From the sequence record PX974237.1: a DNA stretch of 44,742 nucleotides; one strand, 5' to 3'. Under the pieces are notes generated by a model, which saw only the letters and a list, made by a program, of their open reading frames with translations, was not told the DNA's origin and ran no database searches. This DNA comes from a phage. The position numbers and the translations under genes were made by a program. Shown one piece after another: positions 972 to 42,517 of the stretch (position 1 is the first letter of the stretch; every line of letters starts with the position of its first letter).

Positions 972-1030
972 CTTAATTTCTCGCTTTTAAGTTTCGTTTA
1001 CTCCGGGAAGCTGCCCGGTCAGTGATTAGA

Positions 1031-1059
1031 ACTATAATAGCTAACTATTCAGGTGTCAA
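1031..1059 (-). promoter_or_regulatory. Sigma70-like promoter (TTGACA-17-TATAGT) of the replication-module family
   Basis: Minus-strand TTGACA (1059-1054), 17-bp spacer, TATAGT (1036-1031); spacer nearly identical to promoters at 3855-3883 and 42233-42261. Confidence 0.5.
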
Positions 1060-3320: not shown

Positions 3321-3824
3321 TCATTCTCCGTGATTTTTATGGAAGTTGAGTTTTATTTCTGCTTCTTTTCTTGCGAAAACAGCATCTTCAAATTTTGAAA
3401 AGTATCCTAAGTTGTAATTTGTACCTTTTTTGTATATGTACGCATACCACTTATTTTGCTTCCCCACCCAAGACACGCCAGTTACACCCGATGTGTTGTT
3501 CTTGTGCTTTGACCTGTTGTGCATATTCGATAGGTGGCAAACTTTTCTAAGATTAGAAGCTCGGTTATTCAGCCTATCATGGTCTATATGGTCCACTTCA
3601 TCACCCTCTTCGAGTTTATCTGTAGGGTTTAGAATATCCCATATTATTCTATGCACAGGCGTAAGAACCCCGTCTAATCTTACCATTCTATAGCCGCATG
3701 TTTTTGCTAAACACCCCGCTTCATCCCCCGGCCGAACCTTCCCCTTCTTTACAGCCCATCGAAGTATGCCGGTTTCAGGTGAGTAGATGAACTGACCTGT
3801 TTTAATGTTTTTCGTTTCCTCCAT
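3321..3824 (-). CDS. HNH homing endonuclease with AP2 DNA-binding domain
   Basis: 167 aa; HIDHDRLNNRASNLR HNH motif followed by AP2-like segment GVSWVGKQNKWYAYIYKKGTNYNLGYFSKFEDAVFARKEAE. Confidence 0.8.
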   Translation of the reverse strand: MEETKNIKTGQFIYSPETGILRWAVKKGKVRPGDEAGCLAKTCGYRMVRLDGVLTPVHRIIWDILNPTDKLEEGDEVDHIDHDRLNNRASNLRKVCHLSNMHNRSKHKNNTSGVTGVSWVGKQNKWYAYIYKKGTNYNLGYFSKFEDAVFARKEAEIKLNFHKNHGE

Positions 3825-3854: not shown

Positions 3855-3883
3855 ACTATAATAGCGAACTATTCACATGTCAA
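3855..3883 (-). promoter_or_regulatory. Sigma70-like promoter (TTGACA-17-TATAGT), replication-module family
   Basis: Minus-strand TTGACA (3883-3878), 17-bp spacer, TATAGT (3860-3855); about 30 nt upstream of the HNH start. Confidence 0.5.
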
Positions 3884-3887
3884 TGGG

Positions 3888-3916
3888 CTTTTCTAAAATA
3901 ATTAATATGGTACTAT
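3888..3916 (+). promoter_or_regulatory. Candidate promoter for the XRE-type HTH gene (-10 TACTAT, weak -35)
   Basis: TACTAT at 3911-3916 followed by the conserved TCAC motif seen downstream of the early promoters; -35 is poor. Confidence 0.35.
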
Positions 3917-3947
3917 TCACATATCAACTGACTAAGGAGTAACTGAC

Positions 3948-4163
3948 ATGCAACCATCTGAACTAGGCACCCGTGTAGAACAACGCCGTAAAGAACTCGG
4001 CATCTCCCAGCGCCGTTTGGCGGCCCTGACCGGCGTTTCCCAGGGCGCGATTAACCAACTGGCACTTGGAGTAACTCAGGACGTCCGCCCGGCAACGCTG
4101 TTCAAACTGGCGGAAGTTCTGGAAGTAGACGCCAAGTGGCTGGCGTTCGGTGAAGGGGCTTAA
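3948..4163 (+). CDS. XRE-family helix-turn-helix transcriptional regulator
   Basis: 71 aa; GISQRRLAALTGVSQGAINQLALG HTH motif; RBS AAGGAG upstream. Confidence 0.75.
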   Translation: MQPSELGTRVEQRRKELGISQRRLAALTGVSQGAINQLALGVTQDVRPATLFKLAEVLEVDAKWLAFGEGA

Positions 4164-4179
4164 AGCCCCTTTCTTTTTA
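4154..4179 (+). terminator. Rho-independent terminator
   Basis: Hairpin aggggct-taa-agcccct followed by tttcttttt. Confidence 0.6.
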
Positions 4180-4180
4180 C

Positions 4181-6421
4181 CTATTCCAAATCCTCCTCTG
4201 TCACCACCAGCATCTCATTTGGTTCGTATAGTGTCTTCGGCCTTAATCTATCCCCTATTCTTTCGGGTATACGATATGTTCTCGGTACTACTTCGCCGTT
4301 AGCATCGCAACCAAGCATTAGTTCTCCATCTTTCAACATTTTATCAAGATGGGTGTTAGTCACAGAGAAGTCACCGGAACGAGCCACTATCTGCTGCTGA
4401 GTAAAACCGCGACCTGTGTCATCTGACTGTTGCAGGTCTTCCAGTGCCGAAAGTATTGACTCCTTCCTTACTTCATCCCTGCCGCGTTTAACTTCTTCCT
4501 TTACTTTTTGCTTACCTTCTTTCGTCAACCCTTCTTCCCGCTCTTTCTCCTCGTCAGTTTTGAACGGCTCGAAACCCCACGGCATCAACACAAGCGCCTT
4601 GTGTGGTTCAGGAAGGTCCAGGTTTACGATTGTGCCGTATTCTTCTGTGCCCCCCAGGAACTCAACCGCACGGTACTCTTTCGGCGGCGGAGCTTCGCGG
4701 AACTGCACAGACTCCAGCACCATGCCAACCGTTTTCTGTTGAGGACCGTGCTTAAATTTCGAGTGGTATACGTTTATTTGACGGTCGGTTGCACGTTCAA
4801 TCGTCAGTTCCACGTCGACACCCGCATACAATGCTCCACTGCCGCGGGCTTTCTTTCCGCCCTTCGGAGTATGGTGAACGACACCGACAGCGGCTTTAGT
4901 TGCATCGCGCACTTCTTTCAGGATGGCGATAACTTTACCCATACCGATTGTCGTTGATGAACTGTTCTCGTCGAACTTATCAATCGTCAGGGCCAGCGTC
5001 TGGTTAAGGGTGTCGAAGGCAACCATGCCAATAGGTTCATCCCCTGCGGTTTCGCGCATCCTGCGGATTAGAGCTGGAATTTTTTTATCACCATGCGTAG
5101 CGAGTATTTCGCCTATATCGATGACATGTACATAATCTTTACCTTCCTCGCCATATTTAGCCGCGAGCGCATCGATACGTGTGCGTGTAGCTGCACCACC
5201 TTCACCATCAATATAGAAATGGTGGCAACGCTGGGTATCCGCCCCCGCAAACCTGTACCCGGCGGCGCTGAGGTACATCATCCCCAGCGTATAGAACGAT
5301 TTGTACGTGCCAGACTCACCGACGATATCCCAGATACAATCCGACGGCATGTACCCCTCAACGACGAAATCAGCCTTTACCGGCTCCGGTAACTCGTCCT
5401 CCTCTGAGTCCTCGTCGTCTTCCAGGTCGTCGAGGCTGCAAGTTACAGGCTCCTCGTTCTCTGTGCGGTGCAGTTCTTCAATCTCTTCATCCGGTAAATC
5501 AGGCAGAGCCGCACGAATGCTGTTAATACTGATAGGTTGCTTGTCTACGTTAAGCTCGTCTGGCAGGCCGCACATACGCAGGGCCAAATGCTGTCGGCGG
5601 TTAAGCTCGGTGCAAGCGCCGTTGTTTGTATGCTGGCACACAAAGCGCACTTCTTTACCATCAAGCATGATGCTTGTGGAGCCTTTGCCTGTATGCAGAT
5701 GTTCGTTAGGGCATGGGACTTCGTACCCGCGCCCGGAAGATAAAGCGTCAAGGCCAAGCTCGGCTTCGCAGAAATGCGCTATATCCGCGTTAAGCCCATG
5801 CTCATCAGCGGCAAGTGTTTTAGCCTCACGCTTACGCAACCCCATCTCTTCGGCTTTCTTGATGTACCGCTCAGCACGGATAACACGCCCTTCTGTAACC
5901 GTTATCTTCGACTCTTTATGCGGCAGGTAGATAAGGCGGTTGCCGTCTTCTGTGCAGTGGTCGCGCAACGCTTCGTCTATTTCTAACTCTGCACAAATAG
6001 CACGTTGCACCATCCACGCGTCGTTAGAGTTAAACGGCGTGCGAGCTGGAACCAGAACGCGGAAAGCGTAATCTCCGTTTTTACATGCGTGCTGATGCGA
6101 TGCCGTTGTGTGCAGAATATTGAAGAACGGCGCGTTCTTGAATTTGCGTGTCAGGTCGCGGTACTGAGTACGGTTGAGATGGTCGAAATCGAACTTAACC
6201 ACACTGTCTTCCAGGATAGCGTTTTTACGGCGACCACCAACAGGCGCAATAGCTTTCTGTTTAATCTTGGCAGCGTCGTACTCTTCCTTAGTCCATGACG
6301 GGTCCACGGATAAACGCTTCGATGTATCGCAGACATACTCGACAAACTGCTCCAGCGGCATTTCACGCGCTACAGGGTTTTTATCGAATGTGTTACGCAG
6401 CGTTGCAAAAACAATATTCAT
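4181..6421 (-). CDS. Replicative primase-helicase (N-terminal primase-like domain, zinc-binding segment, C-terminal RecA-like DnaB/RepA-type ATPase)
   Basis: 746 aa; Walker A-like GESGTYKS, VHHTPKGG motif typical of RepA/DnaB-like helicases, N-terminal DFDH and SHQH motifs reminiscent of AEP primases, Cys/His cluster CPNEH...C. Confidence 0.65.
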   Translation of the reverse strand: MNIVFATLRNTFDKNPVAREMPLEQFVEYVCDTSKRLSVDPSWTKEEYDAAKIKQKAIAPVGGRRKNAILEDSVVKFDFDHLNRTQYRDLTRKFKNAPFFNILHTTASHQHACKNGDYAFRVLVPARTPFNSNDAWMVQRAICAELEIDEALRDHCTEDGNRLIYLPHKESKITVTEGRVIRAERYIKKAEEMGLRKREAKTLAADEHGLNADIAHFCEAELGLDALSSGRGYEVPCPNEHLHTGKGSTSIMLDGKEVRFVCQHTNNGACTELNRRQHLALRMCGLPDELNVDKQPISINSIRAALPDLPDEEIEELHRTENEEPVTCSLDDLEDDEDSEEDELPEPVKADFVVEGYMPSDCIWDIVGESGTYKSFYTLGMMYLSAAGYRFAGADTQRCHHFYIDGEGGAATRTRIDALAAKYGEEGKDYVHVIDIGEILATHGDKKIPALIRRMRETAGDEPIGMVAFDTLNQTLALTIDKFDENSSSTTIGMGKVIAILKEVRDATKAAVGVVHHTPKGGKKARGSGALYAGVDVELTIERATDRQINVYHSKFKHGPQQKTVGMVLESVQFREAPPPKEYRAVEFLGGTEEYGTIVNLDLPEPHKALVLMPWGFEPFKTDEEKEREEGLTKEGKQKVKEEVKRGRDEVRKESILSALEDLQQSDDTGRGFTQQQIVARSGDFSVTNTHLDKMLKDGELMLGCDANGEVVPRTYRIPERIGDRLRPKTLYEPNEMLVVTEEDLE

Positions 6422-6546
6422 TTCTTTTTCTCCGCACGTTCTAAGGCTTCCTGCATACGGCGCATTGCGCGGTTCATCTTTACCGGCGCGAAGAAATCGG
6501 CGCCGTGTTTCTGTCGGCGCAGCTGTGGAACTATTAACTTCGTCAT
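6418..6546 (-). CDS. Small basic protein (42 aa), translationally coupled to primase-helicase
   Basis: ATG with AAGGA RBS 8 nt upstream; stop overlaps primase-helicase ATG (ATGA). Confidence 0.3.
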   Translation of the reverse strand: MTKLIVPQLRRQKHGADFFAPVKMNRAMRRMQEALERAEKKK

Positions 6547-6615
6547 TGTATAATCCTTGTGCTTACTTTGATGATTTGTGCTTTGGCCCCGACGTTCTTG
6601 CGTTGGGGTTTCTTT

Positions 6616-6906
6616 TTACCGTTTAGCCAACCCTTCCAGCAAATTTTTATACTCTTCAAAATATTCCTCGACCAAATCATCGCCGAAATAGAAGTCGATA
6701 TACTCGAGATTATCTCTTACGTTAAGCGATGCCGACATGGTGCTTAGTTGGCGTAAGCTAATTAGCTTCATTTCTGTTTCTACGCAGAAAGGCCGGTAGG
6801 TATCAAGATGGCAAGAGATATTGAAGCATAAAGCGAACTCTCCGGCCACGGAGTGAACCATATACACTTCGTTTTCTGCTTTATTGTGGAAAATTACGCC
6901 TTTCAT
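6616..6906 (-). CDS. Hypothetical protein (96 aa)
   Basis: ORF; start overlaps stop of upstream HTH gene. Confidence 0.4.
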   Translation of the reverse strand: MKGVIFHNKAENEVYMVHSVAGEFALCFNISCHLDTYRPFCVETEMKLISLRQLSTMSASLNVRDNLEYIDFYFGDDLVEEYFEEYKNLLEGLAKR

Positions 6907-7085
6907 TTCACGTTCTCCTTAATCCATGCTTCGACTTTATTACGGTCAAATGTTCCCGGTAAACGGCGGCCCATAACCTTAATACAGCAGTCAGGGAATT
7001 TGCCGCTGCGCAACCAGTTATTAATGGTCTGACGTGTCACCCCGATACGTTCAGCTACTTCATTCTGCGTCATATAATGCGACAT
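6903..7085 (-). CDS. Small HTH DNA-binding protein (putative transcriptional regulator)
   Basis: Start placed at internal ATG (7085-7083) with AGGAGAT RBS; MSHYMTQNEVAERIGVTRQTINNWLRSGKFP helix-turn-helix; divergent from the early operon. Confidence 0.55.
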   Translation of the reverse strand: MSHYMTQNEVAERIGVTRQTINNWLRSGKFPDCCIKVMGRRLPGTFDRNKVEAWIKENVK

Positions 7086-7116
7086 TTTTATATCTCCTGT
7101 TTGTTTGGTGAAACTG

Positions 7117-7145
7117 AGTATAGGATAGCGGGAATGTAAAAGCAA
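7117..7145 (-). promoter_or_regulatory. Sigma70-like promoter (TTGCTT-17-TATACT) for the leftward HTH operon
   Basis: Minus-strand -35 at 7145-7140 and -10 at 7122-7117 with 17-bp spacer. Confidence 0.45.
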
Positions 7146-7182
7146 CCAATCTCTGTAATATTTAATCTTTACAAAAATGTTA

Positions 7183-7212
7183 TTGAAAGTTCTTGACACA
7201 TGTTTGTATAAT
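7183..7212 (+). promoter_or_regulatory. Strong sigma70-like promoter (TTGAAA-18-TATAAT)
   Basis: TTGAAA at 7183-7188, TATAAT at 7207-7212. Confidence 0.5.
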
Positions 7213-7237
7213 GGTTTTGGGACTTGTATATATTACG

Positions 7238-7274
7238 GAGTTGACGAACCCTCCCCGAGGGATTCGTCAACTCC
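7238..7274 (+). promoter_or_regulatory. Long perfect inverted repeat (hairpin or operator)
   Basis: ggagttgacgaaccctc-ccc-gagggattcgtcaactcc: 17-bp stem with one bulge and a 3-nt loop. Confidence 0.5.
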
Positions 7275-7411
7275 TCCCAGACAGCTGAGATGCTTGCCTT
7301 GGGGTTTATGGATAAGTGTATCTAAATCTCATTTAAAGAAGTAACCCGCTGAAATATCTACTGTTTCTTAATGTGCCGTAGATTCGCAACCGTAAAAATG
7401 TAACGATTATT

Positions 7412-7438
7412 GGGCAGGCTTAAGCCTGCCCTTTAGTT
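7412..7438 (+). terminator. Terminator-like hairpin
   Basis: gggcaggc-ttaa-gcctgccc followed by tttagtt. Confidence 0.45.
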
Positions 7439-7503: not shown

Positions 7504-7532
7504 TTGCACACCCCAACATAATAGGATACTAT
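7504..7532 (+). promoter_or_regulatory. Early promoter (TTGCAC-17-TACTAT), conserved family
   Basis: TTGCAC 7504-7509, TACTAT 7527-7532; about 38 bp near-identical to minus-strand promoters at 19051-19079 and 29089-29117. Confidence 0.55.
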
Positions 7533-7566
7533 TCACTTATCGAAACGAGACATAAGGAATTTAGAA

Positions 7567-8479: not shown

Positions 8480-8508
8480 TTGCACACTAAGATAGAATAG
8501 GCTACTAT
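8480..8508 (+). promoter_or_regulatory. Early promoter (TTGCAC-17-TACTAT)
   Basis: TTGCAC 8480-8485, TACTAT 8503-8508, then conserved TCAtTTAC motif. Confidence 0.5.
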
Positions 8509-8539
8509 TCATTTACACGAACGAGAGGAGAGACAGAAG

Positions 8540-9554: not shown

Positions 9555-9844
9555 CACTTGCAACTGACATCCTGAAACGAAGCGGCCTTGCGCCGCTGTC
9601 ACCGAGAGCTAAAACACAGATATACAAGCGGCGCCATAACGCGCTGTACCCAGAGATACAAGAACGGCGTAAAGCTATCCGCGCCTGTGGATTCCAGAAC
9701 GGAAAGGCCGTGAATCTCGGGGAGTTTAAAACACAGGAACGCGCGGCAATCGCTAATCGGTTATTTAATTACTGGAAATCGCTCGGATACGATGATATTC
9801 CGACTAAACCGCAGAGACGACAATACATCTGGCGTCATAAATAA
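9551..9844 (+). CDS. Hypothetical basic protein (97 aa)
   Basis: ATGA overlap with upstream gene. Confidence 0.45.
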   Translation: MTLATDILKRSGLAPLSPRAKTQIYKRRHNALYPEIQERRKAIRACGFQNGKAVNLGEFKTQERAAIANRLFNYWKSLGYDDIPTKPQRRQYIWRHK

Positions 9845-9919
9845 ACCGTTATTAGGATAATTCCTACCCGTGGTATCCTCCAGTTACTGCATACTTAATA
9901 CGCACCTGGAGGATTCATC

Positions 9920-10228
9920 TTGGATAAATTTACTGAAACAGTGACGGGCTGGCTTCTCGCTGCCGCACTCGCCGGAGGGGTCATCGGACTACGACAACAT
10001 AAGTCCGTTATTTCTGGCCCTATCGACGGCTTCTGCTTCATCGCTACTGGTTTCGCCTGCGCCGTATTTGGCGCCCCTCTTGCAGCTCAATGGTTCGGTA
10101 TCACGGGCGACCGTGAAATCGCTGGCCTTGGATTCATCATTGCTATTCTCTGGATGCCTATTTATTCCCGTCTCTCCGGTATTGTTGCCGGAGAATACAT
10201 CTCACGTCGAGGAGGCCCGGATGAATGA
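9920..10228 (+). CDS. Holin (multi-pass membrane protein)
   Basis: 102 aa, TTG start with GGAGGA RBS; three hydrophobic segments and charged C-terminus; immediately upstream of endolysin. Confidence 0.55.
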   Translation: MDKFTETVTGWLLAAALAGGVIGLRQHKSVISGPIDGFCFIATGFACAVFGAPLAAQWFGITGDREIAGLGFIIAILWMPIYSRLSGIVAGEYISRRGGPDE

Positions 10229-11056: not shown

Positions 11057-11142
11057 ATCTATTTTCTGTAATGACTAGTTGACTATTACCTACGACCCTA
11101 TTATATTTACTCCATCGACAACGAGAACGGAGTAGAGAGAAG

Positions 11143-16144: not shown

Positions 16145-16170
16145 AGGCCCCGCTAGGGGCCTTAGTTTTA
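16145..16170. terminator. Bidirectional hairpin terminator between portal (+) and KilA-N gene (-)
   Basis: aggcccc-gcta-ggggcct flanked by T-rich sequence on both strands. Confidence 0.5.
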
Positions 16171-16821
16171 ACGTATATTAGCCGCACATTTACGCACAAC
16201 CCGAGGTATCGCCTCTTTCAGTTCACCCCATGTATTAACGGCCTCCATGTCAAGAAGCGTCACCAGAGCTTTCTGGATGTCACTTCGCAACTGATTGGTC
16301 TTCGCATCCTGAGAGTCCCATGTATCGAAACCCGTTACGTCGCGGATATCTACGGATTCCTTTACCGCTTTAGCCACCTGTATGAAGTGCCCACTGTGGC
16401 CAATTCTTCCCTCCGTGCGCTCGATCATTCGACTAACGGCAGCGTTAAGCTCGACAAAGCTCACCGCGCCAATGTTTCGTAGTTCTACCTGCCGTTGTGT
16501 GATAAAGCGGTCGATAACGAGGAAATGGAAATAGGCGCTGTATTGCTCAGCAATATATACTGCCAGATGGAGACATGCAAAGGTGCGACCGTTTCGGCCT
16601 TTCGTCGCCCTTATGGCATTCTCGATTCCGAGTTGTTTTTCGCATTCCTCCTTGAAAATCTTGAAGCCATCCGTTGCCATGACCTGGCGAAGCTCTCTGG
16701 TCCCCATGCCGTTGTCTAAACGCCAACGGTTCATCTGGTCAACCAGCTCGTTTACGTTAATAAAGTTTTCACGGTCAAAAGTGATTTCTCCATAAGGGAA
16801 CTCTAATGTTTGCAGTTTCAT
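16168..16821 (-). CDS. KilA-N domain protein
   Basis: 217 aa; N-terminal FINVNELV...GTRELR...RTFACLHLAVYIAEQYSAYFHFLV fits the KilA-N/APSES pattern; AGGAGAAA RBS. Confidence 0.6.
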   Translation of the reverse strand: MKLQTLEFPYGEITFDRENFINVNELVDQMNRWRLDNGMGTRELRQVMATDGFKIFKEECEKQLGIENAIRATKGRNGRTFACLHLAVYIAEQYSAYFHFLVIDRFITQRQVELRNIGAVSFVELNAAVSRMIERTEGRIGHSGHFIQVAKAVKESVDIRDVTGFDTWDSQDAKTNQLRSDIQKALVTLLDMEAVNTWGELKEAIPRVVRKCAANIR

Positions 16822-19023: not shown

Positions 19024-19050
19024 GACGGCCTCCCCGGTTCGATAGAATGA

Positions 19051-19079
19051 ATAGTACCCTATTATATTGGGGTGCGCAA
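19051..19079 (-). promoter_or_regulatory. Early-family promoter (TTGCGC-17-TACTAT) driving the membrane peptide and lipoprotein
   Basis: Minus-strand -35 at 19079-19074, -10 at 19056-19051; spacer accccaatataataggg nearly identical to promoter at 7504-7532. Confidence 0.55.
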
Positions 19080-19145
19080 ACTATTTGTTTATGTATTCCG
19101 GTTATTCCACTCAATTGTAAATGTTGGAATAAACTATTCGAATAG

Positions 19146-19174
19146 TTGACTTTTCACCAAAAATGTGCTAAGCT
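19146..19174 (+). promoter_or_regulatory. Candidate promoter (TTGACT-17-TAAGCT with TG extended -10)
   Basis: TTGACT 19146-19151; TGcTAAGCT 19166-19174. Confidence 0.35.
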
Positions 19175-19354
19175 CCACCTGAGCTTGTGAAGTATGAACA
19201 AGCGACCGCGGCGCGGGCAGGTAACGGAGCGGGACGTAAGTCCTGAGTGTAGTTACGCTGACGCGTTCGGAAGGGCCATACTCTATTGCTTGTGTAAAAA
19301 GTAACTGGTTTACTGAGATTACGCCGTTTCTATGTTTAAATGATAAGGACTAGC

Positions 19355-19381
19355 GCCCCGCTTTAAGGCGGGGCTTTACTT
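19355..19381 (+). terminator. GC-rich hairpin with weak T tract just upstream of the spanin RBS (terminator or attenuator)
   Basis: gccccgc-tttaag-gcggggc followed by tttactt. Confidence 0.35.
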
Positions 19382-19398
19382 ATCGAGAAAGGAGAAAC

Positions 19399-19976: not shown

Positions 19977-20678
19977 ATGAATCGTTTTTTACGTTATCCG
20001 TTCCGGGAAGAAGCTGGGGCAGAAGATAAAGCTGGTGGCGGTGACGCGCCGAAAATGTTCACCGCTGAAGAAGTTCAGGCGCTGATTGAGAAAGAAGTTG
20101 CCGGGCTTAAGGCTAATCAGGAAGCATTGTTGGCGGAGAAGAAAGAAGCCGCTCGCAAAGCAAAAGAGGCCGAAGAAGAACGGCAGCGCGCGCACCAGGA
20201 GGCGTTAAAAGCCGCTGGTAAGATGGATGAGTTCGAAAAGACGATTCGTAGCCAGTATGACCCGGTGTTAGCCGAGAAAGACGGTCGCATCTCCAGAATG
20301 GCAGAGCGTATCCTCGGCAGCGAACGTAAAGCGGTGCTAGGCTCTTTCGCGGGTGACTTTATTACCCCAGAAGCAGTGGACATTCTTGCGCCGTTCGTTA
20401 AGACTGAGTTCGAAGGCGATGATGTGGTTACTAAGTTTGTTGGTGCAGACGGTAACGTAATCACGACTGACCCGGAACAGTTCCGCAAATACCTGCGCGA
20501 ACACAAGGCGTTTTCGCATTTGATCAAAGCAAATGCAGCTTCCGGCGGCGGGGCTTCCGGTAGCAAAGGCGGCGGGGCCGCACCAGCGTTTAAAGACATG
20601 AGTGAAGCAGAGCGTTTAGCCCTGTATAAATCGAACCCTGCCGAATTTGAACGGCAACTTAAAGCCCTGAGGAAATAA
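19977..20678 (+). CDS. Scaffolding protein
   Basis: Start placed at ATG 19977; Ala/Glu/Lys-rich coiled-coil protein immediately upstream of major capsid gene. Confidence 0.55.
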   Translation: MNRFLRYPFREEAGAEDKAGGGDAPKMFTAEEVQALIEKEVAGLKANQEALLAEKKEAARKAKEAEEERQRAHQEALKAAGKMDEFEKTIRSQYDPVLAEKDGRISRMAERILGSERKAVLGSFAGDFITPEAVDILAPFVKTEFEGDDVVTKFVGADGNVITTDPEQFRKYLREHKAFSHLIKANAASGGGASGSKGGGAAPAFKDMSEAERLALYKSNPAEFERQLKALRK

Positions 20679-26624: not shown

Positions 26625-26650
26625 AAGGCCCCTTTCGGGGCCTTTTTCTT
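26625..26650. terminator. Bidirectional rho-independent terminator (tail tube + / kinase -)
   Basis: aaggcccc-tttc-ggggcctt followed by TTTTCTT. Confidence 0.7.
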
Positions 26651-27203
26651 ACAAACCTAATTTTAAAGCAATGTCTATAACGTTCGATTTAACGTCACCC
26701 GGTATGATGTAGGTGTCGTAATCTTTTACACCACCAACATCGTACAGATAGCCACGGCTATCGCCGATGAACGTATAGCCGTCACGATGGAGGCGGACGA
26801 TTCGCACGTCATGCCCCGCGGCGACGATAGGGGCAACTTCACTGGCGAATCCACCGTCGGACACTACAAAAACTTCGTCGCCGTCAGGCAAGTTTTCAGC
26901 AAGATACTTACCGAAATAATCATCGCCGAATACCGGTTTAATGAATTGCTCAGAAATGGCAATCATTAACCGGCGGCGGGACAACCCATTAAGAAAACCC
27001 TCGGGTTTTTCTTTCCGCGCCCGGTCGTCGTAGCCGTCGAGAAATTCGTGGTAAGCATCCTGGCCTAACGCTGCCAAAGCAATATTGAACATTGGATTCT
27101 TGAAACTGGTAGTTCCTTTCGCAAAGCCCATTTCTACCAGCGCCATAGCAAGCGTGTCTTTCCCGCAACCCGCAGGGCCATTAAGAATAATTACCTTAGC
27201 CAT
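26649..27203 (-). CDS. P-loop nucleotide kinase (dNMP-kinase-like; possibly polynucleotide 5'-kinase)
   Basis: 184 aa; Walker A GPAGCGKDT and RRLM segment as recalled from T4 gp1 dNMP kinase. Confidence 0.6.
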   Translation of the reverse strand: MAKVIILNGPAGCGKDTLAMALVEMGFAKGTTSFKNPMFNIALAALGQDAYHEFLDGYDDRARKEKPEGFLNGLSRRRLMIAISEQFIKPVFGDDYFGKYLAENLPDGDEVFVVSDGGFASEVAPIVAAGHDVRIVRLHRDGYTFIGDSRGYLYDVGGVKDYDTYIIPGDVKSNVIDIALKLGL

Positions 27204-27691
27204 TATTTATCGCTCCCGTGTGGTTTTAAGTGTGTAGAGTTCCCGTTACAGTCGTATTCGGTAACTGCGTGTACGGTTATGCCGAGGTCACGGAAATGCT
27301 TTATTACCGCTGGAGAGTCGTCGAACGCACACAAGATTCTTTCCAGTCCGAAAGCACGCAACACCTCTTCTTTAATTACGATGTCTTTTCTGTTGTCGTG
27401 TTTGCTGCGCATGATTAGCGTGTCAAACCTAACGTTATTCTCTCGTAACCATTCGCGAGTCTCCTCCTCAGCGTCATCACTTCGCCCGGTAAGGATAATT
27501 ATAGTAAGTCCGGAATGCCACAGTACGCTACACAAATGGATATTGTCGTATATCGGAGCGTCATCTTTGCAGGCCATGTTAAATGGCTTCCACGCCCACG
27601 TTTCTCCGTAGTTATCTTTTGGTAACAGGTGTAAGCGATGGGTACCGTCAGCCAATGTCCCGTCTAAATCGAAAATTACAATATCTTTCAT
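27203..27691 (-). CDS. HAD-superfamily phosphatase resembling the 3'-phosphatase domain of polynucleotide kinase-phosphatase
   Basis: 162 aa; VIFDLDGTLA motif I, IILTGR motif II, DNRKDIVIKEEV...FDDSPAV motif III/IV, closely resembling my recollection of the T4 PseT phosphatase domain. Confidence 0.65.
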   Translation of the reverse strand: MKDIVIFDLDGTLADGTHRLHLLPKDNYGETWAWKPFNMACKDDAPIYDNIHLCSVLWHSGLTIIILTGRSDDAEEETREWLRENNVRFDTLIMRSKHDNRKDIVIKEEVLRAFGLERILCAFDDSPAVIKHFRDLGITVHAVTEYDCNGNSTHLKPHGSDK

Positions 27692-29047: not shown

Positions 29048-29088
29048 GGTGTAGCTCCTGTTTGGGATAACATCGTTGGTGTAAGTGA

Positions 29089-29117
29089 ATAGTACACTAT
29101 TATATTGGGGTGTGCAA
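29089..29117 (-). promoter_or_regulatory. Early-family promoter (TTGCAC-17-TACTAT) driving the imm / phosphoesterase / phosphatase / kinase cassette
   Basis: Minus-strand -35 at 29117-29112, -10 at 29094-29089; spacer accccaatataatagtg nearly identical to 7504-7532 and 19051-19079. Confidence 0.55.
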
Positions 29118-32388: not shown

Positions 32389-33039
32389 CTAACGACCCTC
32401 TTTTATCAAGGCGATAACGCGGTCGAACATACCTTCCCTTATCGCCTCTATCTCACATCTTCTTGATTCCGCCACCCTTATCTTTTCAGCAATGTAAGCA
32501 TCTAGCGCTTCTTCCTGAGTTTCAAAACGTCCTAGATTAATAGTTTTTTTATCATAGCTCACTGAGGCTTTAAATTTACCTCTAGATTCTTCATAAAAAA
32601 CACCCGTAGGTGTTCCCCTATTTTTCTTTTCCTTTAGGAAAACATTCAGCCATTTAGGGATGAAGATGCAAGTGGTAGGGCTGTATACCTTATTAATACC
32701 AGAGAATATATCCTTATCTAGCTCCCATCCCTCCACATAATTACAAAGCCACCATCTACGGAAGGACATAAACCTTTGCCACCCATGCCACACAGTTACA
32801 TCCCTGTACGCAGGCCTTTTGTTTTTATACTCGGCGTCCACGCAACGTTGGATCATCCCTCGCCATGTAGCGTACGCCAGACACGTCTCACGGTTGCCGT
32901 TTATCTTGGGGCTAACCACATAATCGGCGTCATTTATGCCAAAATCGCATATAGTTGCACGCTTAGTTTTGCTGCTTTTGTTCGCAGGATAATTCGCACG
33001 CAGCCACATGCTCTTGGCTACTTTTTCGGTTGGCATCAT
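32389..33039 (-). CDS. AP2-domain homing-endonuclease-like protein (HNH motif apparently degenerate)
   Basis: Start placed at ATGATG 33039 with AGGAGA RBS; C-terminal AP2-like GVFYEESRGKFKASVSYDKKTINLGRFETQEEA; AT-rich; the long ORF-track start would overlap the downstream tail gene. Confidence 0.5.
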   Translation of the reverse strand: MMPTEKVAKSMWLRANYPANKSSKTKRATICDFGINDADYVVSPKINGNRETCLAYATWRGMIQRCVDAEYKNKRPAYRDVTVWHGWQRFMSFRRWWLCNYVEGWELDKDIFSGINKVYSPTTCIFIPKWLNVFLKEKKNRGTPTGVFYEESRGKFKASVSYDKKTINLGRFETQEEALDAYIAEKIRVAESRRCEIEAIREGMFDRVIALIKEGR

Positions 33040-33074
33040 GTTAGTATCTCCTAAACTAATAGGAGTATCTTGCC

Positions 33075-34466
33075 ATGTCTTCTTTGAAATTTCCAGCAAG
33101 TTTAAAGCCGGTGGTATCAAAAGGCTACTCAATGACCAGACGTAACAACGTCTGGAGGGTCGATTTAGCCGGTGGCGGGGTGCGTCAGGGCCGTGACACA
33201 TATTACGACGTGTTCCCGGTGAGCGTAACCCTGATCACATCCGCAATGGGGCGGCAGGCGTTTCTGTCGTTCCTCGAAAAAGTAGACGGTGGTGCGTCAA
33301 GTTTCTGGATGGCCCACGATTTCGGCATGGGTATCGAGGATTACCAGGTAACCATCACGTCCACCATCGCCGAGTCCACAGAAGATGGGATTAACTGGAC
33401 AATCACTTTCACAGCAACCGCTGAGAAATCCCCGTTCCAGGATGAAGACAACCAGTGCCTGATTAACAATCTGCCAGATTTGTACGGTTGCTATGGAGAT
33501 TGCCTCGGTGGTTTCCTGAAAGCATATGGCATTTACGAAACGACGTTCCCTCGCATCTGGAGCAATGAAGGCCCAGCAGGACACCCGCCGATTAACCTTC
33601 TGGCGTCGACTCTTGATAGCCGCATTGTGTATGACGGACCACAGGTTTACTACATCAACCGAAACGGCAATCTTGTGCAGTCCGCCGCCAATGAATGGCC
33701 TTTAACATTTATTGATGGTGTTGCTGCAGGTCGTGTGCCGCCGGAAAATATCCGCGTTAATTTCGCAGTAAATAACGCGAACATATCCAGCGCTGCATGG
33801 GTGAAGATTAATATGTCTGTTTCTGAATATGACACCATCACCGGAGGGTATGCCCTAACCCCGACCACAACAAAGGGCTCGCACAATTTAAACCAAACTG
33901 TGACAAACACGACGCACCAGGTAGGTAGTTTGGTGACAGTTAGTTACATGGTCAAGGCTAACGGCTATGATTTTTTCCGCGTAAGAGTAGCTGACAGTTT
34001 AGGCTTCCTGGGGGATGTAGTAATAAACTCTACTTCAGGGGAGGTTGTTAGCGGCGGTAGTGGGTCAACAGTACAAAATCTTGGAGGAGGACTGTTCCGG
34101 GTTACCGAAACAGTAACAATACGGGCCGGGGGGACAACAAGTATACTTATGCAGTGTTTTGTGGACGCTGACGGGTTGAAGTCAACCTATCCGGGAGACG
34201 GGGTCAGCGGTGCGGTTATTTTGCTGCCACAAATAGAAAAATCTGCGATAGCTACATCACCGATAGTAACCGAATCGTCACCGGTAACCCGCGCGACGGC
34301 ATCCGCAAAAGTAGCAATGAACGGTGCGACAAGCATCGACATCACCTATTCCGACGGCACTGTGGTAAACGTTCCGTCTGCTGACGGTTACGCGACTATC
34401 CCGCAAGCGGATTCTGCGTGGGGTAGTAAGTACATCACTCGTATCGACTTTAATGTGGACGGTTAA
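33075..34466 (+). CDS. Minor tail protein, lambda gpM-like N-terminal domain with long C-terminal extension
   Basis: 463 aa; first ~115 aa (FLSFLEKVDGGASSFWMAHDF) resemble gpM family; remaining ~350 aa Thr/Ser/Gly-rich. Confidence 0.45.
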   Translation: MSSLKFPASLKPVVSKGYSMTRRNNVWRVDLAGGGVRQGRDTYYDVFPVSVTLITSAMGRQAFLSFLEKVDGGASSFWMAHDFGMGIEDYQVTITSTIAESTEDGINWTITFTATAEKSPFQDEDNQCLINNLPDLYGCYGDCLGGFLKAYGIYETTFPRIWSNEGPAGHPPINLLASTLDSRIVYDGPQVYYINRNGNLVQSAANEWPLTFIDGVAAGRVPPENIRVNFAVNNANISSAAWVKINMSVSEYDTITGGYALTPTTTKGSHNLNQTVTNTTHQVGSLVTVSYMVKANGYDFFRVRVADSLGFLGDVVINSTSGEVVSGGSGSTVQNLGGGLFRVTETVTIRAGGTTSILMQCFVDADGLKSTYPGDGVSGAVILLPQIEKSAIATSPIVTESSPVTRATASAKVAMNGATSIDITYSDGTVVNVPSADGYATIPQADSAWGSKYITRIDFNVDG

Positions 34467-39931: not shown

Positions 39932-40069
39932 CTACTCTTCTGATAACTTCTCCAGTACAAACGCCAGTTGCGCATTAGCGGCGTCTCTTTGCTGACGTAG
40001 CCGCAGAACCTCTTCTTCGAGTTCCTTGATACGTTTTTGCAATGCTGGAATCGGGGCTATGATGTTCAT
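39932..40069 (-). CDS. Small coiled-coil protein (45 aa), last gene of the leftward replication operon
   Basis: ATG overlapping stop of the Toprim gene (ATGA); MNIIAPIPALQKRIKELEEEVLRLRQQRD... Confidence 0.3.
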   Translation of the reverse strand: MNIIAPIPALQKRIKELEEEVLRLRQQRDAANAQLAFVLEKLSEE

Positions 40070-40581
40070 CTGGTAAATTTCCTCGCAAGATACGTTATTT
40101 CTTCTTCACAAAGTTCATCGAGGTCGTTAGATACAAATCCTCTGGTGAATGTTTTGCTGAACTTTAAGCCCGCTTTATCACTGTCACCGGCGCACACCCA
40201 TTCATACGGCAAAAGTGACATTTGCTGCCGTAAGTCAGCTGGTATGTTCGACCCCAATGCGCTAACTGCATTAAACCCGCAATTCATCAAAGCAACAGCT
40301 TTAAATATGCTTTCGGTAACAAATACCACCCCGCTACTTGGCAAATACTCAAGTCCCCATAAACACGGCCTTGTTGTTCGGGTAAAGTACCGCGCGTCTT
40401 TAGGGTTTTTACAGTTCTTTTCAGCATGCGGCTTGTAATGCTGGTATCCTCGTAGCCTGCCGTCAAAACCCCACAAGTAGAATGTAGCAACGCCAGGGGC
40501 TAAGACTACCTGGAGACGGTCTGCGTCAAAACCTCGTGACAGCAGATGCGCCTTAAGTAGAAACTCTTCGAAATCCATCAT
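40066..40581 (-). CDS. Toprim-domain protein (DnaG-like primase core, putative)
   Basis: 171 aa; VVFVTESIFKAVALMNCGFNAVSALGSN...VCAGDSDKAG fits the Toprim pattern. Confidence 0.5.
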   Translation of the reverse strand: MMDFEEFLLKAHLLSRGFDADRLQVVLAPGVATFYLWGFDGRLRGYQHYKPHAEKNCKNPKDARYFTRTTRPCLWGLEYLPSSGVVFVTESIFKAVALMNCGFNAVSALGSNIPADLRQQMSLLPYEWVCAGDSDKAGLKFSKTFTRGFVSNDLDELCEEEITYLARKFTR

Positions 40582-42008
40582 TTCTTACTCCTACGTTTCA
40601 TATAATTAAGTAGTTCATCCTGTACAGACCTTTTCTCGTCTGTACGAGCGGCGACAACTTCATCAAGAGTATCTCGGGCTATTATTTGATAAATGAATAC
40701 AGACCGTTTGTATCCGGATTGCATCTGCCTTACTGGGCCTATACGCTCGATAACCTGCAGATAATGCTCCAGGTTCCACCCCTGACTCATAAAAGCCATG
40801 TGATGCCCGCCGTGTTGTAGCGACAGCCCGTGGCCCGCGGATGCCGGGTGTATCAGGAGCATAGGTATATCCCCCCGGTTCCACGCTTCCATCTGCTTAT
40901 TACCCTTAGCACCTTTTGCAAACGCCTGCGCCTGCGGGAATCGCTTAAGGATGCGCTCCAGTTCGTGCTTAAACTGATAGGCGACTAGCAACGGCGCGCC
41001 CTGTAACTCCTCAACAATTGACTCAAGCGCATCCAGTTTCGTGTCGTGCACTTTCTCCCAGTCTTTCGTTGCTTCGCCATCCGGCCCTGACACATACACG
41101 GCACCAGATGCAATCTGCAAGCACTTTGAGGTCTTCGCCGCAGCGTTAGCCGCTTCAACTTCCCCGCTCTCCAGTTCTGCGAATAACTTCTCCTCCATAT
41201 CTATGTACGCCTGACGCGCTTTCTTCGGCAGGTCTATTTCCACCGGTACGATAACAGGCGCTTCACAACCAAACCACTCGGCAGGGTCTATGGTCAGGCT
41301 GATGTCTTTCATCTTCTGATGAATCTCATTATCCGCACCCGGTCGTGCATGATACTCGCGGGCCATAGCCGATTTACCTTTCTGTACCGAGTTAAACCAG
41401 CGGTCGGTGAATGCTGTGTACGATGAACCGAGTCGCTCGCCAGCGTCGATAAACCAGTTCTGCCCCCACAAGTCCTTGAGGCCGTTTGGTGACGGCGTGC
41501 CAGTCAGGTTAATGAAACGCTTAACCTTTCCGAACGCAACCTTGCTGAGCGCCTTTGCCCGCTTGCTACCACCCGAACGGCTGCGGAACGATTTAAGCTT
41601 CGTGCTTTCATCGGCAACGATAACCGTAAAAGGCCAGTCGTCTTTGCCGTAGTAGTCAATTAGCCACTCGATAACTTCGTAGTTAGTGCACACCACGTTA
41701 GCATCTGACTCCAGCGCTGCGATGCGGCGCTTCTCCGAACCAGTTGCATCTACGACACGCAGACAAGGGAATTGCCATTTCTCTTGTTCAGCGGGCCACG
41801 TACCGGACGCAACACGTAACGGGGCAAGGATTAACACGCGGTCCTCTTCCGTAAGCTGCCCGTTGCGGAACAGGCGGTTGAGCACCCACATAGTGGAGGA
41901 GGTTTTACCTCCCCCCATTCCGCACCAGATATTACAGCGCGGGTGTTGCAGCATGAACGAAGTCATGAGCTTCTGGTACTCTCGACGGATAAATTTAGAC
42001 ATGTTCAA
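40578..42008 (-). CDS. SNF2-family helicase / ATPase
   Basis: 476 aa; Walker A GMGGGKT, DEST box, LTGTPSPN motif, C-terminal helicase motifs. Confidence 0.8.
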   Translation of the reverse strand: MNMSKFIRREYQKLMTSFMLQHPRCNIWCGMGGGKTSSTMWVLNRLFRNGQLTEEDRVLILAPLRVASGTWPAEQEKWQFPCLRVVDATGSEKRRIAALESDANVVCTNYEVIEWLIDYYGKDDWPFTVIVADESTKLKSFRSRSGGSKRAKALSKVAFGKVKRFINLTGTPSPNGLKDLWGQNWFIDAGERLGSSYTAFTDRWFNSVQKGKSAMAREYHARPGADNEIHQKMKDISLTIDPAEWFGCEAPVIVPVEIDLPKKARQAYIDMEEKLFAELESGEVEAANAAAKTSKCLQIASGAVYVSGPDGEATKDWEKVHDTKLDALESIVEELQGAPLLVAYQFKHELERILKRFPQAQAFAKGAKGNKQMEAWNRGDIPMLLIHPASAGHGLSLQHGGHHMAFMSQGWNLEHYLQVIERIGPVRQMQSGYKRSVFIYQIIARDTLDEVVAARTDEKRSVQDELLNYMKRRSKK

Positions 42009-42199
42009 TCCTTAACGTAGAGTACCAGCTCTTTACGCCCGAACGCGGTAACGTTGCCTGTTACATCTTCGATAACCAGTTTACCGTTTGACTCGACGAA
42101 CACAGTATCAACGGCAACAGGCTGGCGGGTCTTAACGTTGAAAATCATGTCGCCAGGTACGATGTCACGTGCTGGTTTACGGTCATATTCGTATTTCAT
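42005..42199 (-). CDS. Hypothetical protein (64 aa)
   Basis: ORF downstream of a conserved promoter, stop-start overlap with SNF2 gene. Confidence 0.45.
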   Translation of the reverse strand: MKYEYDRKPARDIVPGDMIFNVKTRQPVAVDTVFVESNGKLVIEDVTGNVTAFGRKELVLYVKD

Positions 42200-42229: not shown

Positions 42230-42517
42230 CTAACTATAATAGTTCGCTATTAGGTCGTCAACCTGTTTGAACGACCCGACGACAAAAACATTCGCACCAC
42301 GTTTACGCATCCGCTCATGCTCTCGTAACTGGTGTGGGTCAGGCTTCGTGCTTTCGTCTTTCTTCACCTCGACGAACCAGACGATGCCGCCCGGGAGAAT
42401 TACCAGCAGGTCGGGAGCGCCGGAACGTCCTTCGTAGGAGAGCTTGCGAACGAGGCCACCGAGGGCCTCGAATCGCTCTTTTGCGTATTTCTGTATGCGC
42501 CCCTCAGGCGTACTCAT
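42230..42517 (-). CDS. VRR-NUC domain nuclease
   Basis: 95 aa; GAPDLLVILPGGIVWFVEVKK matches the VRR-NUC PD-(D/E)XK signature. Confidence 0.7.
   Translation of the reverse strand: MSTPEGRIQKYAKERFEALGGLVRKLSYEGRSGAPDLLVILPGGIVWFVEVKKDESTKPDPHQLREHERMRKRGANVFVVGSFKQVDDLIANYYS
42233..42261 (-). promoter_or_regulatory. Sigma70-like promoter (TTGACG-17-TATAGT), replication-module family
   Basis: Minus-strand -35 at 42261-42256, -10 at 42238-42233; spacer shared with promoters at 1031-1059 and 3855-3883. Confidence 0.5.

Follow-up and report, generated by a model that had tools for sequence, protein, structure and literature searches.

The sequence record PX974237.1, analyzed here as a single window of 44,742 nucleotides (nt), is a circular permutation of the 44.7-kb genome of a virulent siphophage of Escherichia coli. 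The phage is a Kagunavirus (Guernseyvirinae), the first 6 kb of the window being up to 96% identical to Escherichia Kagunavirus phages, with SonjaBuckley_Bas74 as the top match and Salmonella Jerseyvirus phages matching more weakly. The element under study is a promoter with an internal palindrome that recurs on the minus strand at 1031–1059, 3855–3883, and 42233–42261 (A1, A2, and A3, respectively), within a minus-strand replication and recombination cluster that extends leftward from ∼7200 to position 1 and resumes at 44742 to end at 40066. A1 is followed by a gene for a Gp2.5-like SSB (345–971, minus), with the DNA polymerase next, beyond the window edge. The first gene after A2 encodes an HNH homing endonuclease (3321–3824, minus), which is absent in the closest relative, Bas74, and which forms a leftward operon with phrog_3127 and an exonuclease. 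A3 precedes an open reading frame (ORF) of 64 amino acids and unknown function (42005–42199), a helicase (40578–42008), and a primase-like ORF (40066–40581), all on the minus strand. Divergent from A2, on the plus strand, lies the gene for a 71-residue XRE protein (3948–4163; Pfam HTH_3, E = 3.9e-13) of the helix-turn-helix (HTH) type.

The pattern TTGACR-N4-AATAG-N4-CTATT-ATAGT has exactly three matches in the window, all on the minus strand, compared with none expected, and no match was found in any of 100 shuffled sequences even when two mismatches were allowed. The −35 hexamer is TTGACA at both A1 (1059–1054) and A2 (3883–3878), identical to the consensus at 6/6 positions, and TTGACG (5/6) at A3 (42261–42256). 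In all three the −10 hexamer is TATAGT (5/6) at a distance of 17 bp (1036–1031, 3860–3855, and 42238–42233, respectively), giving scores against the sigma-70 consensus of 11/12, 11/12, and 10/12, which place A1–A3 among the four best matches of the scanned genome, where only one other site reaches 11/12. The palindromes are AATAGTTAGCTATT at A1 (1049–1036), AATAGTTCGCTATT at A2 (3873–3860, designated O1), and AATAGCGAACTATT at A3 (42251–42238). The original prediction, made from the DNA letters, had described TTGAC(A/G)-17-TATAGT with a shared spacer core at these three positions; the hexamers and their spacing are exactly as described, but the core GAATAGTT(A/C)GCTAT is present on the minus strand at the first two sites only. 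At A3 the palindrome centre is inverted relative to A1 and A2, and the minus strand reads TAATAGCGAACTAT, the reverse complement of the A2 core. The feature common to all three sites is the dyad AATAG-N4-CTATT, and the plus strand carries CTATAATAG at each of them, in agreement with the earlier description of the sites as partly palindromic.

The surroundings of the three promoters are less uniform than had been proposed. A start codon 20–40 nt downstream was found for A2 (30 nt from the −10 hexamer) and A3 (33 nt) but not for A1 (∼59 nt), and the genes that come first after A2 and A3 are the homing endonuclease gene and the 64-residue ORF, respectively, the latter with the helicase thereafter. 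Similarly, an operon is headed only by A2, whereas A1 and A3 are internal promoters overlapping the 3′ ends of upstream ORFs. The stop codon of the ORF at 1045–1248 (1047–1045, minus) is located inside the left arm of the A1 palindrome, and that of a VRR-NUC ORF (42230–42517, minus), whose 3′ end overlaps A3, directly follows the A3 −10 hexamer (42232–42230), so that the same bases are at once coding, promoter, and operator sequence. The 5′ untranslated region of the SSB gene also includes a hairpin, CCGGGcagcttCCCGG, at 1003–1018 (minus), whose sequence, CACTGRCCGGGCAG, is kept in loci of the Kagunavirus, Jerseyvirus, Cornellvirus, and Enterobacter phage phiEap-2 types, with a variant in Pantoea phage AH01. 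Compared with shuffled sequence, this hairpin does not fold any better (z = 0.5); it might act as a signal for translation or processing.

Searching the whole genome for AATAG-N4-CTATT with at most one mismatch gave 11 matches, compared with 1.3 expected, and a weight matrix separated eight strong sites (1036, 3860, 3904, 7520, 8496, 19050, 29088, and 42238), scoring 20–25, from all others, scoring 14 or lower. All eight are located in core promoters, either in intergenic DNA or, for A1 and A3, at the extreme 3′ end of the upstream ORF, and seven of the eight share the extended core TGAATAGT-N3-CTATTAT when aligned in one orientation. Relative to that orientation, transcription runs in opposite directions in two promoter architectures. 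In architecture A, comprising A1–A3, the order is TTGACA-N4-core-ATAGT with the core at −25 to −12, whereas in architecture B (7520, 8496, 19050, and 29088) it is TTGCAC-N10-AATAGnnTACTATT, where the −10 hexamer is TACTAT and the core occupies −19 to −6. The XRE gene's own promoter (at 3904) carries TACTAT as architecture B does. In architecture C, represented by weak copies at 11074 and 19141 upstream of structural-gene blocks, the core centre coincides with a −35 hexamer, TTGACT, and a fourth register, −22 to −9, was seen at one Jerseyvirus site. A scan of representative GTDB genomes with the motif returned chance matches only. The proposal that the element is dedicated to the middle (replication) genes had to be given up, since the same core stands at the promoters of the rightward small-gene clusters (7520 and 8496), of two minus-strand units of small or accessory genes (19050 and 29088), and of the XRE gene (3904); what sets A1–A3 apart is their architecture only, with a consensus −35 and the core inside the spacer.

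The first two architecture-B promoters are on the plus strand. B1 (7504–7533) consists of TTGCAC (7504–7509), a 17-bp spacer, and TACTAT (7527–7532), its core AATAGGATACTATT (7520–7533) overlapping the −10 hexamer, and drives rightward small genes of unknown function from 7567, for which early timing is assumed from their position; B2 (8480–8509; TTGCAC-17-TACTAT), with the core AATAGGCTACTATT at 8496–8509, precedes genes from 8540. The other two are on the minus strand in divergent regions. B3 (19050–19079; TTGCGC at 19079–19074, 17 bp, TACTAT at 19056–19051, core at 19050–19063) lies between a small minus-strand gene and the Rz/scaffold/capsid block, and B4 (29088–29117; TTGCAC at 29117–29112, 17 bp, TACTAT at 29094–29089) between a small-membrane-protein/exonuclease unit and the tail genes, with a core, AATAGTACACTATT (29088–29101), that is a perfect 6-N2-6 palindrome. 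The weak copies are both on the plus strand: ACTAGTTGACTATT (11074–11107) is centred on the −35 of TTGACT-17-TATATT, upstream of the genes preceding terminase, and AATAGTTGACTTTT (19141–19174) on the −35 of TTGACT-17-TAAGCT, upstream of the Rz/scaffold/capsid block. A core over the −35 as at 11074 is also found in the Cornellvirus phage Shemara at 6873 and 27878. The TTGACT-17-TAAGCT promoter (19146–19174, plus) is in addition preceded by everted half-sites, ACTATTcgAATAGT, and followed by a leader of ∼190 nt that ends at a terminator (19355–19374) before the Rz/scaffold/capsid genes. The layout of this region (19134–19398, plus) recalls lambda PR′-tR′ and hints at antitermination control of the late genes.

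The same repeat has been reported before in the Kagunavirus fBC-Eco01, where seven copies, with the consensus tgAATAGTa-ccTATTat-T, were found with PHIRE and ascribed to a phage-encoded RNA polymerase (PMC9825357). PHIRE also gave the motif TAATAGTACCCTATTATGTT in the Jerseyvirus SGP-C (PMC8790156) and seven promoters in phage Golestan, for which the main text gives no consensus (PMC7203180). The motifs of fBC-Eco01 and SGP-C are the same sequence element as that described here, and those papers list the repeat only; no paper was found on its dyad symmetry, its differing architectures, a link to the XRE protein, or lineage-specific half-sites. A phage RNA polymerase promoter is hardly credible, as no gene for such an enzyme was found in these genomes, including the window, where every large ORF has an assigned role in replication, packaging, or the virion. 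Moreover, the motif is a palindrome that lies within good sigma-70 hexamers, and its orientation with respect to the genes downstream is not fixed, differing between architectures A and B and being inverted at 42238. On the palindromy and the missing polymerase gene, this assignment was rejected.

The XRE protein was examined as the candidate binder named in the original prediction. Its best sequence match in the PDB is 434 Cro (phmmer, E = 1.4e-6), which has the same length of 71 residues. An AlphaFold2 model (predicted local distance difference test score, 82) comprises five helices, and the best Foldseek match of this model is again 434 Cro (PDB code 2cro), with template modelling scores of 0.77/0.84 and 40% identity. 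Homologues of the protein were found in 506 phage records and in every lineage that has the promoter set, with 50% identity between Kagunavirus and Jerseyvirus. In the Bas74 record (PQ850627.1) an intact XRE gene, 97% identical, is present but unannotated at 33202–33414, a 31-residue ORF on the opposite strand (33217–33312) being annotated instead. The XRE gene forms its own transcription unit, with a terminator-like hairpin at 4152–4172 (plus), and two copies of the core lie between it and A2. The first of these is O1 (3860–3873); the second, O2, has the imperfect core AATATGGTACTATT (3904–3917, plus) and overlaps the XRE promoter, whose −10 hexamer TACTAT is at 3911–3916, the alternative hexamers for this promoter being TTCACA-16-TAAAAT at 3872–3899. 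O1 and O2, which stand on either side of the XRE promoter, are separated by 44 bp, centre to centre, and a layout of the same type was observed at the XRE locus of Jerseyvirus, Cornellvirus, AH01, and phiEap-2.

IMG/VR loci selected by the motif are biased toward conserved arms, and conservation was therefore measured again on 63 IMG/VR loci chosen by homology to the XRE protein, independently of the motif. Alignment of the 135 nt upstream of the XRE start yielded 41 distinct sequences, 32 of which are Kagunavirus-type. Within these 32, the −35 and −10 hexamers and the two arms of each operator copy (O1 and O2) do not vary, apart from one base changed in one sequence, while the palindrome centre is variable, as is the linker of 4–5 nt between the −35 hexamer and TGAATAG (TGTG, AGTG, CGTG, CCATG, TCATG, and others). 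With a one-base insertion in the linker, some relatives have a spacer of 18 instead of 17 bp, and the Jerseyvirus sequences in the alignment have AATCG in one arm and TTGCAT as the −35. The motif-selected loci gave the same picture at the eight sites, which is supportive only. Of the checks proposed with the original prediction, the motif search gave strong enrichment (three matches versus none expected) and the comparison with related phages conserved promoters, with arms and hexamers invariant in the Kagunavirus-type sequences. On these sequence features A1–A3 look like genuine, conserved sigma-70 promoters of the host type.

The sigma-70 holoenzyme makes no base-specific contacts at −25 to −20. 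The left arm of the palindrome is conserved precisely there, and consequently something other than sigma-70 selects for this arm. This observation bears on the possibility that there is no dedicated regulator and that the core is a promoter-intrinsic cassette that has been copied, acting as a bidirectional or strong RNA polymerase module. The two arms can be read as −10-like hexamers on opposite strands (TACTAT and TATAAT/TATAGT), the element is present in all four native divergent intergenic regions, and its flanks are consistently asymmetric (TGAATAGT on one side and CTATTAT on the other), all of which a cassette would explain. However, the left arm is invariant at three sites although the adjacent linker varies, the register of the core relative to the functional −10 differs between architectures, and the orthologues of the architecture-B cores contain no conserved −35 for the opposite (rightward/late) direction. 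Furthermore, both arms have changed from G to C together in AH01, which fits the site of a dimeric protein and not a pair of −10 hexamers. A copied cassette is, on this evidence, rather improbable.

The promoter set is kept at orthologous positions in six lineages, with the hexamers retained in the five besides Kagunavirus. The orthologous promoters are those of the SSB gene, the promoter divergent from XRE, the XRE gene's own, those of the early clusters, and those in the divergent regions of the structural module. As in the window, AATAG-N4-CTATT is enriched in the Jerseyvirus wksl3 (9 observed versus 1.3 expected) and in the Serratia phage Tsm2 (4 versus 0.47), where it stands at the SSB and early promoters. 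Shemara has no AATAG-type site and carries instead ATTAG-N4-GTATT (9 versus 2.0); the core is inverted in the Cornellvirus sites, as at 42238. In AH01 the enriched form is AATAC-N4-GTATT (10 versus 1.1, five of them perfect), the AATAG type not being enriched, and in phiEap-2 mostly AATAG and some AATAC half-sites were seen. The G-to-C change in AH01 is symmetric, affecting both arms, as would be expected from co-evolution with a dimeric protein and not from a −10-like contact with polymerase. The recognition helix of the XRE protein starts with Ser-Gln in the AATAG lineages (Kagunavirus, Jerseyvirus, Tsm2, and mostly phiEap-2) and with Thr-Gln in the two lineages with GTATT arms (Cornellvirus and AH01). 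The half-site may follow the recognition helix, a correlation that, with few independent lineages, is suggestive only. Taken together, the likeness to 434 Cro, the presence in every lineage with the promoter set, the two copies of the core in the protein's own promoter region, and the apparent change of half-site where the recognition helix changes make the XRE protein the best candidate for the binder, in line with the original prediction.

The palindrome could alternatively be bound by a different phage protein, with the XRE protein doing something else. One such protein is an HTH_17/excisionase-like protein of 60 residues (6903–7085, minus), and another would be an uncharacterized conserved small protein. 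The HTH_17 protein is 82% identical between Kagunavirus and Jerseyvirus, which fits their identical motif better than the 50% identity of the XRE protein, and Cornellvirus is without both HTH_17 and the AATAG motif. On the other hand, the SSB and early promoters of Tsm2 carry AATAG-N4-CTATT although no HTH_17 homologue is detectable in that phage, and Cornellvirus and AH01, in which none is detectable, and phiEap-2, in which none is annotated, all keep the promoter set with a modified core. Short HTH_17/Xis-like proteins, moreover, usually bind direct repeats and not 14-bp dyads, which counts against this candidate. HTH_17 was dropped as the binder on the promoter sets of Tsm2, Cornellvirus, and AH01, which lack it, and any phage protein other than XRE in this role is considered quite unlikely. 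Recruitment of a host DNA-binding protein would account for a general form, A-W-T-A-S ... S-T-A-W-T, that is kept in phages infecting several enterobacterial hosts, yet Jerseyvirus and Cornellvirus both grow on Salmonella enterica and have different cores. No host consensus is known to fit, TrpR, ArgR, Cra, and CRP having been compared by eye and Fis, IHF, H-NS, and MarA also considered. A host protein is accordingly given very little weight.

The reading that is moderately favoured is that A1–A3 are sigma-70 promoters repressed by a 434-Cro-like dimer of the XRE protein on a 14-bp operator common to eight promoters. The sequences themselves establish the sites and their enrichment, how they are conserved and spread over the regulon, the half-site switches between lineages, and the family of the protein; from these we infer the XRE protein as the binder, repression as its effect, and any timing. 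The XRE dimer would bind the 14-bp dyad AATAG-N4-CTATT and, once bound, exclude RNA polymerase. Steric repression of this kind is the simplest mechanism because every operator overlaps a core promoter, in a register that differs between promoters. The protein would thereby turn down transcription of both the early and the replication genes, and it would repress its own gene through the weaker, imperfect O2, in a negative autoregulation. Since their consensus hexamers lie outside the arms, architecture-A promoters may be the stronger competitors of the repressor, and those of architecture B, with the −10 inside the operator, may shut off sooner, so that early and replication genes would differ in their shut-off kinetics. 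The weak copies over the −35 of structural-gene promoters would leave these least affected. Activation by the operator-bound protein is unlikely: with the operator placed in the spacer or over the −10, and with spacers that are optimal to begin with, neither class I or class II activation nor that of the MerR type fits. A MerR-type spacer operator was rejected on the spacer length, which is 17 bp (18 bp in some relatives) and not an over-long 19–20 bp.

Several observations weigh against repression by the XRE protein. The recognition helices of Jerseyvirus (SQSLITH) and Kagunavirus (SQGAINQ) differ at four positions and the motif is the same in both. The Cornellvirus motif is only a pseudo-palindrome (ATTAG versus AATAC), AATAC and AATAG arms are mixed in AH01 and phiEap-2, and the correlation of Ser/Thr with G/C is based on approximately six lineages, which may reflect a single evolutionary event. 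A symmetric dimer would not by itself account for the flanks of the core, whose asymmetry (TG...AT) is consistent. The binder may also be another of the conserved small proteins of unknown function. Lastly, the searchable literature gave no direct evidence of binding or of transcript starts for any phage of the Guernseyvirinae, whether from transcriptome, transcription start site, or electrophoretic mobility shift studies, and a paper on phage eta proved relevant to the structural module only.

A broader form of the same idea, drawn by analogy, is that Guernseyvirinae phages, classed as strictly virulent, have a Cro-like master repressor covering most of their recognizable promoters, and that the operator classes (AATAG, AATAC, and ATTAG/AATAC) correspond roughly to lambdoid immunity groups. 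This is a speculative extension and an unlikely one. If true, it could give transcriptional superinfection immunity between co-infecting relatives and a reversible silenced or carrier state without an integrase; a silenced or carrier state has been claimed for the Jerseyvirus SGP-C (PMC8790156). In the present case, neither the annotation of the close relative nor the scanned ORFs revealed a cI-like, integrase, or partition gene, and a search of 5,426 complete E. coli genomes found no copy of the phage.

Phages of the genera Kagunavirus and Jerseyvirus have been widely put forward as agents of therapy and biocontrol, and nothing on their transcriptional organization was found in the searchable literature. 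The practical outcome here is a promoter and operator map of eight sites with a named candidate regulator, together with a correction to the published view that the motif belongs to a phage RNA polymerase. A small, testable set for HTH specificity is also at hand in the variant 434-Cro-like helices and the half-site switches that occur naturally with them (AATAG, AATAC, and ATTAG). Should the repressor be able to silence the genome, this would bear on the assumption, relevant to safety, that these phages are strictly lytic.

Other features of the window and its relatives were noted alongside the promoters. Compared with Bas74, the phage has extra minus-strand genes at 3321–3824, 16168–16821, 26649–27691, and 32389–33201; these encode two HNH endonucleases, an amidase, a deoxynucleoside monophosphate kinase, and a polynucleotide kinase, and are probably mobile or accessory insertions. 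The primase-helicase module (4181–7199 in the window) lies on the opposite strand to the XRE gene and includes HTH_17 in Kagunavirus and Jerseyvirus, whereas in the other four lineages (Cornellvirus, Tsm2, AH01, and phiEap-2) the module is without HTH_17 and comes after XRE, sharing its strand; it looks as if the module has been inverted or replaced between lineages. At 7183–7212 (plus) there is a further promoter, TTGAAA-18-TATAAT, which at 11/12 is one of the scanned genome's top three sigma-70 matches. Downstream of it are a strong hairpin (7241–7272) and an intrinsic terminator (7412–7431), with no ORF and no Rfam match, and Rfam gave no match anywhere within the window. With these features, the region 7183–7435 (plus), which belongs to the early control region, is a candidate for encoding a non-coding RNA of ∼200 nt. 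In Tsm2, two long intergenic regions (9567–10144 and 20356–20575) have common ‘ttccgcaca/tgtgcggaa’ inverted repeats and a similar GC-rich structured segment; they may represent non-coding paralogues, one preceding the early genes and one the late genes.

Among known systems, phage 434 Cro with its operators is the closest. The Cro protein and the repressor of phage 434 bind to dyads of 14 bp, contacting the outer bases but not the centre. The candidate described here is likewise a five-helix HTH_3 protein of 71 residues, with 434 Cro as its best match in both sequence and fold, and its proposed sites, like the 434 operators OR1–3 and OL1–3, are 14-bp dyads with the outer 5 bp conserved and the centre variable. 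The sites also overlap core promoters, including the regulator's own and the divergent one, as they do in 434. The differences are equally clear: the dyad is AATAG-N4-CTATT and not ACAA-N6-TTGT, there is no tripartite operator, with two sites only at the XRE locus, and the annotation lists neither a cI-type partner nor an integrase or lysogeny module. Instead of the two clusters of 434, eight putative operators are dispersed over the genome of a virulent phage. The proposed system works like a Cro-operator circuit but lies outside what defines the lambdoid lysis-lysogeny switch.

In having one small regulator with many sites genome-wide that serve several transcription units, the proposed arrangement resembles those of P1 C1 and mycobacteriophage L5 gp71. 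The sites of these two regulators are asymmetric, with stoperators within transcribed regions and biased in orientation, and the phages are temperate; the sites described here, in contrast, are dyads inside core promoters. The controller (C) proteins of restriction-modification systems offer a third comparison, C.AhdI, C.BclI, and C.Esp1396I being small XRE proteins of similar fold (Foldseek ranks 13–17 and 40). They bind as dimers to palindromic boxes in their own promoter region and regulate themselves in a concentration-dependent manner, as is proposed for the XRE protein. C-boxes are located at and upstream of the −35, giving activation first and repression later, whereas the position in the spacer or −10 here argues for repression only, and, unlike that of a C protein, the proposed regulon spans a whole phage genome. 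The repeat itself was already known, and the system, partly described before, is of an ordinary kind and would be a case of textbook operator-repressor control.

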